64,000 bases of DNA from Octopus vulgaris (GCA_951406725.2 OX597829.1:56854001-56918000), one strand, 5' to 3'; counted from the stretch's first letter, positions 6,946 through 33,640 are shown. Made by a program: numbers and translations. The notes: a model not told the origin generated them from the letters alone.

Positions 6946-7210
6946 AAAGGGTAAAATTAATTAATAATTTTACCAAGTAGTTCTGCACAGATGAGGTGAA
7001 ATAAGTAAGTAAATATAACTTTACTTTAGTCCCGAAACGCGTTTGTAGCTAATCTAAGTCATGTGGATTCGTTATTTTTTTTTGTCTTTGCCTATGTAAA
7101 AAAAGTGTGTTACAGTCAGGGAGATATTTATGGTAACGGAAAAGGTATTTTAACTGCTATTTCTAAATTCAGTGCATGGCGAAGCAATCAGCTGACCCCT
7201 GATTATAATT
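6946..7210 (+). mobile_element. Penelope-like pLTR fragment with decayed hammerhead motif and short inverted tail
   Basis: CTGCA-CAGATGA-G...C-GAAA-CGCG-TT-TGTAG at 6983-7048. 7150-7208 matches 33005-33068, and 6946-6980 matches 32536-32585. Confidence 0.6.
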
Positions 7211-7229
7211 ATGCTCATAATTATATATT

Positions 7230-7449
7230 TCTTTACTACCCACAAGGGGCTAAACACAGAGAGGACAAACAAATGGATTAAGTCGATTATATCGACCCCA
7301 GTGCGTAACTGGTACTTATTTAATCGACCCCGAAAGGATGAAAGGCAAAGTCGACCTCGGCGGAATTTGAACTCACAACGTAGCGGCAGACGAAATACGG
7401 CTACGCATTTCGCCCGGCGTGCTAACGTCTCTGCCAGCTCGCTGCCTTA
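7230..7449 (-). mobile_element. MetaSINE-type tRNA-derived SINE
   Basis: Minus strand has a tRNA-like head (GAGTTCAAATTCCGCC) followed by GTCGACTTTGCCTTTCATCCTTTCGGGGTCGATTAAATAAGTACCAG. Other copies at about 43380-43590, 49340-49475, 53820-54025 and 56590-56790. Confidence 0.75.
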
Positions 7450-7480
7450 TAATTATAGAATATTTGTATGTATATGTGCA

Positions 7481-7936
7481 TATAACCAAGAAAAAAGCAA
7501 CAATAATGGATCGGTAGTTTAGCACAATTGTTTCATACTATAAACATTTTATTTAAAGCTGCAAATATTACAGCAAATATAATGTCAAGTATTCATCAGC
7601 TAAACCACATATAGGTTTTCCATATATTCTTAACCAGCATCTTTCCTCATGCCTCTTGGAACTTATACCCACATCTTTATGAGTAGATTTATCTTCTCTG
7701 GGATGTTAATAATCAATTTAAAAACTTTGTATTGTTGGAAAACATATATAGTCTGCTTGGAATCTTACTTCAGATTCATGGAACTCACACCTACAACTTC
7801 ATAAGGATATTTACACTCTCTAAGAATATATGGAAAACCTATATTTGATTTAGCTGATGAATACTTGACATTATATTTGCTGTAATATTTGCAACTAAAC
7901 TACCGATCCATTATTGTTGCTTTTTTCTTGGTTATA
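7481..7936. mobile_element. Palindromic Penelope-like non-autonomous element (inverted pLTR arms)
   Basis: 7481-7632 is an inverted repeat of 7821-7936, with about 37 nt missing from the right arm. The left arm holds a hammerhead motif on the minus strand. Confidence 0.75.
7515..7607 (-). ncRNA. Type I hammerhead ribozyme motif (GUG at the cleavage triplet, probably inactive)
   Basis: Minus strand reads TGGTTTAG-CTGATGA-ATACT...AGTAT-GAAA-CAATTG-T-G-CTAAACTA. Stem I, the core, stem II and a palindromic stem III all pair. Confidence 0.75.
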
Positions 7937-8119
7937 ATCACCCCACATAATTTTATGGTTAATACCATAAAGAATTCTGGTGCATCTAAGTTAAGTACCA
8001 TATTCATTTGAATCTTAATTGTTTTATATGTGTGTATATATATATATATATATATATACACACACACACATATATATATCTGTGTATATAGGCCTGTTTG
8101 CAAAAAATTTCTTTGCTGG

Positions 8120-29646: not shown

Positions 29647-32294
29647 CGAAAAAAATGCTATGAAAATGACCGTTAAAACAAAGGGAAATAACTGTGTGAT
29701 TGACCGTTATTAAGACAAAAGTGCTATTTGAATGACCGCTGATTGAGGGGAGGGAGTAAAGGTAAGGGTGTAAAAATGTTCATAGTAATCGCGTAAGTGC
29801 GCATGTCCATACATACACATGCGTGCCCGAACACCCACGTACATGCGCCTATATGTATATACTCATCCACCCTCACTTGAAACAGACACATGCTCACCCA
29901 CATCGATCGATCAACCCTAGTGTACTCAATAAGGCCGTATGGCACGCACATAATAAGGCAGGCCTCTCCAGGGAGGAAATTAATGTGATTTTAGCGGCTA
30001 GAAAATCTTTCATACAGTTCGATGATAAGTTATGGCTCCGCAGAGATACTCCCAACGCGTTCGATGTGCTAATGGGAAGTACAGATAGCCGATTTGGTCG
30101 GAATCTATATTCTCTATGAATTGGCCGACCAATTCCCGGTCATCTGCGGCGGTCTGTATCGAGACGATTGTCTACTTTACCTCCAGAATGCTCCGAACAA
30201 TAGGATACAGAAGACTAAGATCAGATTAGCTAGATTTTTTTAGCAGAATGGGCTTGAGCATAGTTTTCGACAACGAATTAACTAAAGCCAACTTCTTAGA
30301 TGTTACCCTAAATCTGCAGAATAATTCTTACTTCCCTTATTATAAGCCTTCTACTAATCTTAAATATATCAGCATTTTCAGTAACCATGCCAAAACTATT
30401 ACCGATAATTTAGTTAAAAATATTTCTTTAAGACTGTCAAAATTATCTGCTAATGTCGACATCTTTAACCAAAAAGCGGAATTTTATAACGCCGCCTTGT
30501 CAAAAGCCGGTTATAGAGATAAAGTGTCATATAACGACCCGGCCCATTCTAAACCAATATATGCTTATCAGGATAAGAAAACTAATAACAATAGAAATAG
30601 TGTGAATAATGATTTCAGCTCTAACAACGTCGACACCACTATACTTAAGAAAAAAAAATTACGGACCAGGGGAGGCAATCGGCAACCAACCCCAATTTTC
30701 CAGCACAGAAATATTCCCTTTAATGTAAATGGTAACACTCTGAACAATTCTAAGTCCACAAAAAACTATATCTGGTTTGTCATACCTTTCGGGAAACAAA
30801 TCTGGTCAAACCTTCCTTTACAGTTCCGTGAAGCCGTAGCTAGGAACTTTCCCAGAAATTCTAGGTATTACTCTACTATCAATTCGCATAAGGTAAGGAT
30901 TGCATTCTCTAACACTAGAAATCTATCGCAAATTATTGCCTCCCATAATAACAAGCTGCTAAATAAGGATTCTTCACCCGGGAGTTACGACACTGCTCTT
31001 AGCAATTCCAACCAAACATACAATAATAATAATAATAGAAATAGTATTGATAATAGCAACATTCATAGCAGCGTTGGCATTAACAATAATAATATTAGTC
31101 GGATTATTAACAGATTAGTGTTAGTGGTAGTAACGATAGCATTTCTAATAACAGTGGTAGTATTGATGATAACAACCCCAGCATTCCTATAGTCATCGAT
31201 ATTGCCGACGATAGTACAATTAATAGTAATGACAATAATAGGAATAGTTTAAGGGTCAATGCTAGCAATAATATTAACAACAATCATAACAATAAAAACT
31301 CAGTCTTAGTCTCGGAGGTAAACCCTAACAGATTAAAGTTCTTGTCCAGCAATTCCAAAGTTAGAAATTCCATTTACCAGTGTAAAATTTCTTCCGGTAC
31401 CGGTGTCTTCTTCTACATTGGGGCGACTACTTCTAAATTATCCCAAAGGATTTCCAATCATTATTCAACTTTCTGAGATAAGAGAAAACAACAAAGCACA
31501 GGACTAAGTAAATTAGTTTGGCGTCTTAAGGACATCAATGTAACTTTCAAGCTGGAATGGTCCATATTGTCTATATCCTTTCCTTTTGATAAGGGCAGAA
31601 AATTTTGTGGCGTCTGTAATTCCGAACATTTCCATATACTTTTCGCTAAATTCCCTTTAGTAAACACAATGGTAGAAAAATCCTATAGGTGCATGCACTG
31701 GCAGAAACACACCTTTCACTCATATGAATGACGATTAATATAGATAACCTCCTTGAATTTAATAATTTGGTTCCACTTATACAACAACACCATAGACAAT
31801 TTTTATACTCAGTTTCATGAAGGACTACTACCAAATTCGTTGGGGTATGTTTTACCTTTGTCTCTCTACCTCTCCCTCCTCTCCATCTCTCTCTCTCTCT
31901 CTCCCTCTCTCTATCGTAAGCATAATCAAACACACAGACACAAACCTGTCACTTCACCACTAGTTGTTTTTGGCATCTACCCACTCACATACACATACAC
32001 ACACATAGACACGAATGCAGTTACATACATACACACACATAGGCACTCAATCTCATTAGCAAAAGCAATCAACAACACATCACCATTTATACGACTTGCA
32101 CCCTGTCACCTTCCTATTCTTAGATCTCTCCCCTTCCAACCTTGTTTGAACTCTTGAACTTTCTAGAATCTTCTCCATTCAACCATTTTTGACCTCACTG
32201 CTTATAACGGAATATTTAAAGAAACACTCATTATCACTATGGACTCCGTGTGGGCAGTCATCTAAAAGTTTTTGTTCATCATGATGCTGACATA

Positions 32295-32397
32295 AGTTCC
32301 TTGTCTTTCCTGATGAGTAGGCGGCATAATGCATCCCTTATTCCTTCGAAATTAGGAATATGCAGTCTTCGAAACATATGTCGAGAACAAAGGAATT
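32295..32397 (+). ncRNA. Type I hammerhead ribozyme, canonical core, predicted cleavage after GUC 32382
   Basis: TTCCTTGTCTTTC-CTGATGA-G(TAGGC..GCATA..TATTCCT/AGGAATATGC..GTCTT)C-GAAA-CATATG-TC-GAGAACAAAGGAA. Stem III is the palindrome ACATATGT. Confidence 0.82.
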
Positions 32398-32535
32398 TTG
32401 TTAAATCATCGTTCAACTCCATTCTTTCATTTATTTGTGTGTGTATATATATATATATATATATATATATATATATATATATATATATATATATACATAT
32501 ATATATATAATAATAATAATAATAATAATAATAAC

Positions 32536-33071
32536 AAAGGGTAAAATTAATTAATTAAGAAGTAATCAGTAATTTTACCAAGTAGAATTCGGCATGAAAA
32601 AAAGGACCATTTCATGGTAAGCTTAAGTAATACTTTATAATTAGGGTTCAGCAAAGATTTGCTTCACTAGATACCGAAGTTTAGAAATAGCAGTCAAAAA
32701 ATCTTAGTTATTCCTTCTACTTTAAAAAGGACTCCCAGAAAAACCAAAGTACTTGAAAACTCAGCGCCGGCCCGTACCCGCGGGTAGCCCCGACCGTGGC
32801 CAATCCGGCGGAGTGGGCTTTCGCGCTACTCGGGATGACCCACCGACATCTCGAGCCCAGGTTTAACGGGGGCCGGGGGGACGAGTTTGGTACCTTTGGT
32901 TACCCTCGTACGGGAGGGACATGCACGAGTTGGGTGAGAGTCATCACGAGCTGCCCCCTCCGCCAAGGGCCTACTTTTAAAGTAGAAGGAATAGCTAAGA
33001 TTTTTTGACTGCTATTTCTAAACTTCGGTATGTGGTGAAGCAAATCTTTGCTGAACCCTAATTATAAAGTA
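32536..33071. mobile_element. Palindromic Penelope-like element with a GC-rich spacer
   Basis: Arms of about 96 bp at 32631-32726 and 32975-33071. Same family as 6946-7210. Lies between (TAA)n and (TA)n. Confidence 0.7.
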
Positions 33072-33120
33072 TATATATATATATATATATATATATATAT
33101 ATATATATATATATATATAT

Positions 33121-33640
33121 AAGGAGAGAAATATACTATGATAAAAATTTATTTTACCGTTGGATATTTATATTTAACAATAATTGTTTCGCAACTTAAG
33201 AAACATGTATAAATAGTTTATTTTATTATATATTATAATAAATGATAAATTATTTACATCTCTGTATTAATATATATATAATTATAAACATCTGCTATGA
33301 GTGTATTTATTTTAACATTATGTGCTAAAGCTGAGTTGTTATCGACTATATTTCCAGAGGCCTTTGGTGTTGTATAATAAGAATGGACAGTATCAAGGAC
33401 ATTGTTGGGGAGTCTATCAGCTTAACATCTGCCTTATTTTTAAAATTGTTCATTTATTAATGCAAATAATGTATTATAAAATATAAAAAAATAAACTATT
33501 TATACATGTTTATTAAGCTGCGAAACAATTGTTGTTACATATTGATGTTCTATAGTAAAATAAATTTTATCATAGTATATTTCTCTCTCTATTTATAATT
33601 TTATGCATTCCTTATGGTTTTCTCTTATATCATACTATAT
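33121..33640. mobile_element. Palindromic AT-rich element (probable inverted pLTR pair)
   Basis: 33124-33240 is inverted to 33472-33587. It contains CGAAACAATTGTT (hammerhead 3' half) and starts directly after (TA)n. Confidence 0.6.

Follow-up and report, generated by a model that had tools for sequence, protein, structure and literature searches.

The window, a 64,000-nucleotide stretch of Octopus vulgaris DNA, carries six short non-coding elements (E1 to E6), a broken coding Penelope-like element (PLE) and a further hammerhead-bearing piece (H5), as follows.

6946..7210, plus strand: E1, with a terminal hairpin, a decayed hammerhead (core 6988-6994, stem III ACGCGT) and a 3' block in common with E5
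7481..7936, no strand assigned: E2, inverted arms with equal outer ends; minus-strand hammerhead core 7599-7593, well folded, G at the cleavage site
21600..22058, minus strand: E3 full monomer, 459 nt, non-coding, 31% GC, one type I hammerhead; period from the direct repeat 21600/22059
21728..21789, minus strand: hammerhead of the long E3 copy, core 21782-21776, predicted cut after 21734; decayed at this locus, intact in the family majority letters
22059..22086, minus strand: E3 partial tandem copy of 28 nt, pseudo-LTR-like, equivalent to the 3' end of a second unit
22089..22439, plus strand: E3 inverted, 5'-truncated copy with a decayed hammerhead (core 22244-22250) matched in both scans
22420..22439, plus strand: E3 tail of 20 nt that continues into the next unit's start; confined to the right end and abutting (TA)n
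29085..29345, minus strand: E4, a unit of about 222 nt flanked by direct repeats of 14 bp (29097-29110, 29319-29332); a weak motif resembling a hammerhead, at about 29274-29230, seen by eye only
29476..29900, minus strand: H5, the 3' end of another family, non-coding and with a hammerhead (core 29634-29628, stem III ACTC-G-GAGT); inner boundary approximate
29907..31728, plus strand: candidate Hydra-clade PLE ORF, 5'-truncated and broken, with part of the RT, thumb, Asn-rich linker and C-terminal GIY-YIG
31732..32436, plus strand: 3' UTR of the coding element, hammerhead core 32310-32316, stem III ACATATGT; ends at (TG)n(TA)n
32536..33071, no strand assigned: E5, a 94-nt left piece starting with the E1 hairpin, 98-bp inverted arms and a 247-nt spacer of 63% GC; no hammerhead
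33114..33640, no strand assigned: E6, with inverted arms, a right end longer by about 45 nt and the 3' half of a hammerhead (33522)

We scanned the window for hammerheads in two ways. The strict scan (one mismatch; stems I, II and III of at least 5, 2 and 3) found three, in E1 (6988, plus strand, one core mismatch), E2 (7599, minus strand, G at the cleavage site) and E3 (22244, plus strand, one mismatch), compared with none in each of 25 shuffles; looser stems gave three against a mean of 0.68. A relaxed scored scan found six matches at a score of at least 18, a cut chosen after the scan, against a mean of 0.12 and a maximum of 1 in 40 shuffles, and these are the same three together with 29634 on the minus strand (score 29), 32310 and 53521 on the plus strand. 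The one at 53521 had been missed in the initial annotation. Four short elements had been credited with whole or decayed motifs, and the scans bear this out for E1, E2 and E3. Neither scan picked up the motif of E4, a by-eye reading, and its fold is no better than that of shuffles (41 of 200). One element had been described as keeping only the 3' half, and E6 has only GAAA plus stem III. An Rfam search of the window returned no hammerhead family among 44 matches at E<=5. Stem III opens with AC in E1, E2, E6, H5, the coding element and 53521. E2 and E6 have the same stem III, but were rejected as one family since 28 of 200 and 46 of 200 shuffles were as good.

Masking simple repeats leaves 7 local inverted repeats in the 64 kb, and E2, E3, E5 and E6 rank highest among them. 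Inverted arms or tails had been reported for five of the six elements, and inverted arms are present in these four; E1 has its terminal hairpin (z -3.3) without inverted arms, and E4 has the 14-bp direct repeat, 222 nt apart, in their place. The arms of E2 (7481-7632 and 7821-7936) are 96% alike over a core of 76 nt, the right arm having lost 36 nt and being without GAAA and stem III, and those of E6 (33124-33246 and 33466-33587) are 87% alike. The claim that all six lie in or beside simple repeats held in part: 6 of the 12 ends are within 15 nt of a simple repeat (5.2% of the window) and 4 of 12 are beside (TA) tracts of at least four (3.3% of the window), counts that are not an independent test, the bounds having partly been drawn at simple repeats. 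Neither end of E2 is near one, and the right end of E4 abuts a TC tract found only by TRF. For Hydra-clade PLEs, both the suggested (TA)n preference and the inverted copies were already published (PMC8557442).

E2 and E5 could also be MITEs, that is, DNA transposon derivatives with terminal inverted repeats at TA, and would then stand apart from the mechanism of E3. The arms of E5 (32630-32727 and 32975-33072) are 97% alike and TA-bounded around an element devoid of any hammerhead, those of E2 end at the same base in a TATA context, and a short-TIR element lies in the vicinity (24084-24614). For both, the ends at TA are seen in single copies, with no other full copies seen. We nevertheless consider this quite unlikely, given the well-folded hammerhead inside the E2 arm (z -4.5, 0 of 200 shuffles as good), the unequal ends of E3, E5 and E6, and the kinship of E5 with E1, which has a hammerhead and no arms. 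E1 and E5 start with the same 20-mer (2 matches versus 0.01 expected) and have a right block of about 70 nt in common (77%, a score reached by 0 of 200 shuffles) that contributes to the E5 arms, so that the earlier proposal of a motif-less element matching a motif-bearing one was confirmed. Collinearity of the two beyond the hairpin (43 of 200 shuffles as good) and a continuation of E1 beyond E6 (150 of 200) were both rejected. As circles, E1 and E4 fold no better than shuffles (23 of 60 and 44 of 60, respectively). An exact search with the E1/E5 pattern gave 0 matches in metagenome contigs, and four viral-contig matches to the 20-mer, only 22-23 bases alike, were dropped as chance. The layout of E5 fits no simple explanation.

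The coding element has frame breaks near 30085, 30240 and 31150 and a stop at 31474. Its RT is followed by a GIY-YIG endonuclease at the C-terminus (profile, 139 bits) with CxxC and CxH motifs and no CCHH, which is the Hydra-clade arrangement; a Pfam search of the window gave only a weak GIY-YIG match (E 0.066). The element matches P0001-P0003 by tblastn (E 1e-25 to 1e-9), its RT and thumb are 65-72% identical to an Octopus sinensis protein, and by eye the RT region resembles Hydra-1_Obim. The region of the RWK and DKT motifs is truncated away, and both motifs are present in the three best full-length relatives. The CxCx5C linker before the endonuclease is absent here and in P0005-P0009, and present or nearly so in P0001-P0003 and P0013. 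We would therefore file the element as a Hydra-like subfamily, by motifs and sequence matches rather than by a tree; Naiad and Chlamys were rejected because the endonuclease is C-terminal. The ACTCGGAGT hammerhead at 29634, within the coding element as drawn earlier (29476-32436), lies in a separate piece, H5, which is head to head with the truncated RT, has no detectable likeness to the 3' end of the coding element (31731-32436; 60 of 200 shuffles as good) and was thus rejected as its own inverted pLTR. E1 to E6 have no sequence in common with the coding element, which leaves the idea that this family mobilises them in trans unsupported. Neither tblastn nor two profiles built from 154 proteins found endonuclease remnants in the short elements (nothing better than E 8), and E3 has no RT match either.

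The whole of E3 spans 21600-22439 (21607-22440 in the initial annotation). Its arms (21607-21937 and 22089-22423) are 92% alike over 337 nt. What had been taken as the spacer contains a same-strand head-to-tail junction, 21600-21627 recurring at 22059-22086 with a period of 459 (25 of 28 identical, a score reached by 0 of 200 shuffles). The tail at 22420-22439 is the exact reverse complement of 22039-22058. The ends are unequal, (TA)n tracts flank both, and no target-site duplication is readable. The monomer folds better than shuffles both as a linear molecule (z -3.7, 0 of 100) and, for 21607-22056, as a circle (z -3.9, 0 of 60). The locus is likely dead and would release no monomer, because it has one hammerhead per strand and both are mutated.

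Next we examined copies outside the window for E3, the one of the six short elements covered, by comparing 439 bases (21600-22038) with the contigs of four runs from four studies under three organism labels. The matching contigs numbered 3690, 2534, 3372 and 1437, most of them 90-99% alike; we do not take their summed depth as copy number. A 22-mer used as an exact pattern had 0 matches in metagenome contigs, and there were 0 pattern matches in genome contigs. The joint 22038 to 21600 with 20 letters between was found in all four runs (3, 1, 4 and 1 contigs). Of the 12 joints with intervening letters that were listed, out of 39, 10 loop from 21993-22038 to 21600-21605, and all five exact ones listed carry 1-4 differences from the window's 20 letters and so are other copies. 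These contigs are short, showing the joint with 23-44 letters on the short side, and none spans the unit; diverged contigs tile it (21635-21813, 21701-21960, 21820-22038). The family unit is a 459-nt head-to-tail monomer and not a palindrome.

Among the joints and variants listed, on which the junction and variant readings rest (15 of 33 and 40 of 182), the majority letters repair the decay seen at the locus: 21780 T>C makes up 99-100% of depth, 21774 A>C 98-100%, 21783 T>C 66-85%, 21742 T>C 74-97% and 21743 T>C 83-91%. With these listed variants the family has a complete type I hammerhead, in which stem I of 6 bp and stem III of 5 bp accompany the core; this stem III agrees with the one guessed in the initial annotation. 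The two free positions vary: position 7 does so in 10-30% of depth, and the cleavage-site base is A in 55-62% and otherwise mostly U; paired changes in stems I and III fall on CpG sites and are unphased, hence no covariation signal is readable. Opposite-strand joints among those listed lie at 21699/22037 and 21767/21887, each in 1-2 single contigs, and the window's own at about 21627/21938. Since the inversion points of these three differ, the palindrome was likely made at insertion and not inherited. The outside copies of E3 showed neither fixed terminal inverted repeats with constant target-site duplications nor a consensus without a hammerhead core, the two outcomes named beforehand as contrary to the initial annotation. 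E3 was rejected as a MITE, its ends being unequal and its family unit a direct-repeat monomer. The claim of non-autonomous, retrozyme-like families thus holds for E3 as a short ORF-less head-to-tail unit with intact majority core and stems.

All six elements, E3 included, could instead be dead-end remnants of ordinary coding PLEs, as stumps truncated at the 5' end or as tandem pseudo-LTRs, with no self-propagating family among them. Truncation at the 5' end with an inverted copy and a tail is a normal PLE product, known also in Hydra (Penelope-13_HM), PLEs make up 6.83% of the O. vulgaris genome in 190 families, and E2, E6 and H5 are without a head-to-tail junction in the window. E2 and E6 are explained just as well by plain 5'-truncated Hydra stumps as by non-autonomous families, and the stump reading is probably right for some of E1, E2, E4, E5 and E6. 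For E3 the outside copies speak otherwise: they loop back after 459 nt with no run into an ORF, contigs cover 30 of 30 bins with no drop toward the 5' end of the unit, and 1% of the matched material continues into sequence unlike E3, although a rare long coding version could be hidden among short contigs. As an account of all six, we therefore regard it as unlikely.

A hammerhead-bearing satellite that spreads as DNA, through excised circles, rolling-circle copying and repair, with the inverted arm as a fold-back repair product, would likewise give head-to-tail joints; array length is unreadable from short contigs, and the distribution of retrozymes is also Helitron-like according to Li et al. 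(bioRxiv 10.64898/2026.07.22.740005). However, a single locus combines, as in PLEs, a partial tandem, a one-sided 20-nt tail, 3' ends that point outward and (TA)n on either side, and repair is not expected to halt both strands at the unit boundary. We hold this origin of the E3 unit to be very unlikely.

Taken together, we favour, at a probability of roughly two in three, a reading in which E3 is one copy of an abundant 459-nt unit that lacks an ORF, bears a hammerhead and is joined head to tail. In this reading a PLE likely mobilised it in trans with its RT and endonuclease, the palindrome likely arose at insertion, and several Hydra-type families likely left the other five, as 5'-truncated ends or as similar passengers. 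The chromosomal setting of E3 suggests pasting-in by a Penelope-type element, and E1, E2, E4, E5 and E6 are probably stumps or similar passengers of such elements. In this scheme, a transcript through tandem E3 units, joined head to tail in other copies and bearing an intact hammerhead in their majority letters, would be cut by the ribozyme and closed into a circle; circular retrozyme RNA has been shown for coral, mussel and axolotl. A PLE protein would nick (TA)n DNA and begin copying internally on the RNA, from either of two sites that lie 20 nt apart, leaving the tail, as has been shown in vitro for an anole Poseidon element (Frangieh et al. 2024, PMC11167929). Judging from the sequence, the long copy, of about 487 nt, crosses the predicted cut site and the unit junction, so that, barring a template jump, the template would have been a circle or uncut multimer and not a cut linear monomer. 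A second, earlier-stopping copy placed on the other strand would yield the inverted arm. Because hammerhead cleavage is not required for anole PLE insertion in vitro (PMC11167929), the circle step is optional. The helper may belong to a clade other than Hydra, because stem III of E3, of 5 bp, opens with AU, unlike the Hydra rows of the published hammerhead table (PMC8557442).

A wider possibility, which we put forward tentatively and rather doubt, is that several circular-RNA retrozyme families with no relation to one another (E3, E1/E5, E4 and more) occupy thousands of loci in octopus genomes and that PLE proteins inserted them all, for example those of a Hydra-type subfamily without the linker zinc finger; the insertion scars would then be the first direct genomic evidence of PLE-moved animal retrozymes from a circular template.

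Both PMC7229834 and PMC7761336 present it as an open question which enzyme moves the retrozymes of animals, and PLEs have been argued to be the movers from co-occurrence and sequence kinship, in vertebrates only, with the life cycle called little tested (bioRxiv 10.64898/2026.07.22.740005). A retrozyme-sized unit with a PLE-specific insertion scar turns this idea into a prediction that can be counted on octopus assemblies already available: 3' ends would fall at two sites 20 nt apart, 5' ends and inversions would vary, and the targets would be (TA)n. The E3 unit would also serve as a natural trans substrate when PLEs are assayed in vitro, and it bears on cephalopod repeat annotation. The parts are each already known, and the strong evidence is that of one family at one locus; E3 is a variant of known non-LTR retrozymes and non-autonomous PLEs, useful for testing who mobilises animal retrozymes. 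Our literature searches turned up nothing about retrozymes in cephalopods and no retrozyme described with inverted copies and a tail; such families may exist in Repbase, Dfam, the O. vulgaris Zenodo library, subscription journals and the supplements of PMC7229834 and of the preprint.

Compared with metazoan non-LTR retrozymes (Cervera & de la Pena 2020, PMC7229834; Li, Clavereau & Pollet 2026, bioRxiv 10.64898/2026.07.22.740005), known for instance in a mussel at 350-390 bp, E3 has the short non-coding monomer, one type I hammerhead per unit in its majority letters, GC below 50%, head-to-tail joining, high predicted self-pairing, many copies and co-occurring PLEs. It differs in its length, marginally above 150-450 bp, and in sitting in (TA)n with an inverted truncated copy, partial tandem and tail. 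"Inverted" has 0 occurrences in the main text of PMC7229834 and appears only in a reference title in PMC7761336 and the preprint, where "tail" has 0 occurrences.

The coding element resembles Hydra-clade PLEs (Craig et al. 2021, PMC8557442), including Hydra-1_Obim, in its domain order and motifs, 3' hammerhead and (TA)n end, and differs in its Asn-rich stretch where the CxCx5C linker is expected and in a hammerhead unlike that listed for Hydra-1_oBim. Families of this clade, found in Octopus, combine (TA)n insertion, a 3' hammerhead and inverted 5' copies, and stem III opens with AC in 26 of 26 Hydra/Repbase rows of the table, as in the hammerhead-bearing short elements other than E3 and E4; that of H5 is identical to those of Hydra-2_aMil and Penelope-16_HM. 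Unlike these PLEs, the short elements have no ORF. In this they resemble non-autonomous Chlamys PLEs such as MRC1 (PMC8557442), ORF-less with pLTRs and head-to-tail insertions, but those are mostly without hammerheads and match their helper at the 3' end, whereas the short elements here have no match to the window's one coding element. Short non-autonomous Penelope elements are also described in Heliconius, in a passage that gives no structure (PMC6685494).

Finally, E3 and the window share with PLE insertion units (Arkhipova et al. 2013, PMC3846280; Frangieh et al. 2024, PMC11167929) the published signature of a tandem copy truncated at its 5' end (pLTR), an inverted copy truncated in the same way and a one-sided, optional tail, as well as head-to-head orientation, Asn-rich ORF inserts and non-coding cargo between solo pLTRs. 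E3 departs from the described units in its tail, of 20 nt versus 30-40 nt, and in being non-coding throughout.

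All six short elements that the initial annotation had placed in this eukaryotic, AT-rich sequence, which is rich in microsatellites and short repeats, were found at their positions by sequence inspection. They had been read as hammerhead-associated, mostly palindromic, non-autonomous families belonging to the Penelope-like elements (PLEs); we found that the observation is largely right, and that the interpretation is right for one family, that of E3, with a monomer and not the palindrome as the unit.

6946-7210, E1: terminal hairpin only, no inverted arms
7481-7936, E2: inverted arms
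21607-22440, E3: inverted arms
29085-29345, E4: a 14-bp direct repeat instead of inverted arms
32536-33071, E5: inverted arms, left piece of 94 nt
33121-33640, E6: inverted arms, unequal ends

With simple repeats masked, E2, E3, E5 and E6 gave the top four of 7 local inverted repeats, and the inverted arms or tails described for five elements stand for these four but not for E1 or E4. A target duplication or a partial tandem copy could account for the repeat of E4. Simple repeats adjoin 6 of the 12 element ends, against a background of 5% and with boundaries drawn in part at those repeats. The window is low in GC, but the E5 spacer (32728-32974) reaches 63%; it has no Rfam match and does not fold unusually, and neither do E1 and E4 when modelled as circles. 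For E1, E2 and E6, the sequence would fit 5′-truncated stumps and further monomer families equally well, and E2 and E5 may be MITEs.

Several other features share the window. A SINE-like repeat with an apparent 8-9 bp flanking duplication lies between E1 and E2 (7217-7450), with more copies near 43447, 49361 and 53819, and an open frame of 519 codons at 4238-5797 (+) has motifs like those of reverse transcriptases and is presumably RTE-like. The 530-bp element at 24084-24614, with 32-bp inverted ends (91%), and a transposase-like peptide scrap near it (~27379-27462) both look Tc1/mariner-like. Between the copies of an 82-bp direct repeat (25598-25679 and 26770-26851; 99% identity, 1172 bp apart) there is a 54-bp inverted pair (26383-26645).

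A strict hammerhead scan detected E1, E2 and E3 (background: 0 in 25 shuffles at tighter stem settings, mean 0.68 at the loosest), and a relaxed, scored scan returned 6 matches where 0.12 were expected: E1, E2, E3, 29634 (-), 32310 (+) and 53521 (+), the last absent from the initial annotation. Whole or decayed motifs had been ascribed to four elements; three of them were recovered, whereas the E4 motif was picked up by neither scan. As described before, E6 carries only the 3′ half, and E5 has no hammerhead and matches the motif-bearing E1, with which it has its 20 opening bases and a block of 70 nt in common. Stem III of E1, E2 and E6 starts with AC, as in Hydra. The high-scoring hammerhead at 53513-53565 (+; core 53521) has a Hydra-like stem III, ACAG-G-CTGT, and is faced ~150 nt away by a decayed related half copy (~53680-53725, -); the 3′ ends of this pair point inward, opposite to the six elements.

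The E3 family was examined in contigs of four DNA-type runs carrying three organism labels and found with 29476-33640; the source of the window and the run that matches it best may be related. To the E3 left arm and its unique part (21600-22038), 1437 to 3690 contigs aligned per run, which is not a copy number, and most were 90-99% alike. They covered 30 of 30 bins with no drop towards the 5′ end of the unit, and 1% of their material ran on into sequence unlike the target. In each of the four runs, contigs (3, 1, 4 and 1) join 22038 to 21600 by way of 20 letters, which vary on those of the window at 22039-22058; among the 12 listed rows of intervening letters (of 39), 10 loop back in this manner, and none of the five exact ones is identical to the window. 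Because this joint occurs in 4 of 4 runs and the same junction is found in the window, where 21600-21627 recurs at 22059-22086, the E3 family has as its unit a monomer of 459 nt that is joined head to tail and lacks an ORF. The contigs are short and none spans the unit, which leaves array length and copy number unreadable and room for a rare coding version.

Taken at its majority letters, the family has an intact hammerhead core with stems I and III of 6 and 5 bp; position 7 of the hammerhead numbering and the cleavage-site base are variable. Paired stem changes fall at CpG sites, to which the CpG-decay argument applies, and are unphased; we therefore claim no covariation. As a linear or a circular molecule, the monomer is predicted to fold much better than shuffled sequences. 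Opposite-strand joints among the rows listed (15 of 33) lie at 21699/22037 in two runs and at 21767/21887 in one; neither coincides with that of the window (~21627/21938). Collectively, the outside copies and the intact majority-letter motif bear out a short non-autonomous hammerhead family for E3.

Between E4 and E5 lies the coding element, a broken, 5′-truncated PLE. Among named sequences its nearest relatives come from Octopus sinensis (proteins with 84% and 59-72% identity), which suggests an octopus as the host. Mobilisation of the short elements in trans by elements like 29476-32436 had been proposed; the coding element has no sequence match among the short elements, and none of E1 to E6 contains an endonuclease remnant. 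According to the available part of PMC8557442, RWK, DKT and cysteine-linker motifs define the Hydra clade, whose families occur in Octopus, insert (nearly all of them) in (TA)n and carry a hammerhead close to the 3′ end, in one family with an attached inverted truncated copy; a CxCx5C linker is proposed there to guide (TA)n targeting. The three motifs are present in the three best full-length relatives of the coding element. As compared by motifs, the coding element (at 31294-31372) and its five closest relatives (proteins P0005-P0009; P0155) have no CxCx5C linker. Of 70 proteins that extend far enough upstream, 45 have the linker by a crude count of motifs. The copy nevertheless ends at (TG)n(TA)n. 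A ~35-codon scrap resembling the Hydra thumb-linker region (48712-48608, -; E 0.028) is also followed by (TA)n.

The hammerhead-bearing segment upstream, H5 (29476-~29900, -), was ruled out by sequence comparison as the coding element's own inverted end. It is the 3′ end of a different family, head to head with the truncated RT, and its stem III is that of two Hydra families in the accessible portion of PMC8557442. The joint near 29900 is a short palindromic junction, and each outer end continues into (TG)n followed by (TA)n. H5 is either a second insertion or the product of a template switch between families, a possible origin of the joint (29476-29910).

Read on the minus strand, E3 has the following order, with (TA)n on both sides.

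22089-22439: inverted 5′-truncated copy with a 20-nt tail
22059-22086 (-): 28-nt partial tandem
21600-22058 (-): one full monomer

The two ends of the insertion fall on the unit boundary, which is ~135 nt away from the predicted cut. Since the long copy crosses both the predicted cut site and the unit junction, the template would, barring a template jump, have been a circle or an uncut multimer. We hypothesize that tandem units would be transcribed through, the transcript cut by the ribozyme and the RNA closed into a circle, and that a PLE-driven nick at (TA)n and internal priming on this RNA would follow, the inverted arm arising at insertion. In E3, stem III opens with AU, which none of the 26 Hydra/Repbase rows examined from PMC8557442 does, so the putative helper is not necessarily Hydra.

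A literature search with term counts yielded no description of a monomer of the retrozyme type that has an inverted copy, partial tandem and tail, and a literature search yielded none of cephalopod retrozymes; Repbase, Dfam, the library of O. vulgaris and two supplements lie outside this scope. From the available sections of the cited papers, non-LTR retrozymes and their proposed PLE origin are already published (PMC7229834; bioRxiv 10.64898/2026.07.22.740005), as are non-autonomous PLEs, inverted pseudo-LTRs and (TA)n targeting (PMC8557442; PMC3846280), and the enzyme that mobilises retrozymes is still a proposal (PMC7229834; PMC7761336; bioRxiv 10.64898/2026.07.22.740005). In the portion of PMC11167929 available, the tail is tied in vitro to two internal RT start sites. 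The inverted truncated copy with its tail, the partial tandem and the full monomer of E3 agree with the PLE insertion unit as set out in the available text of PMC3846280.
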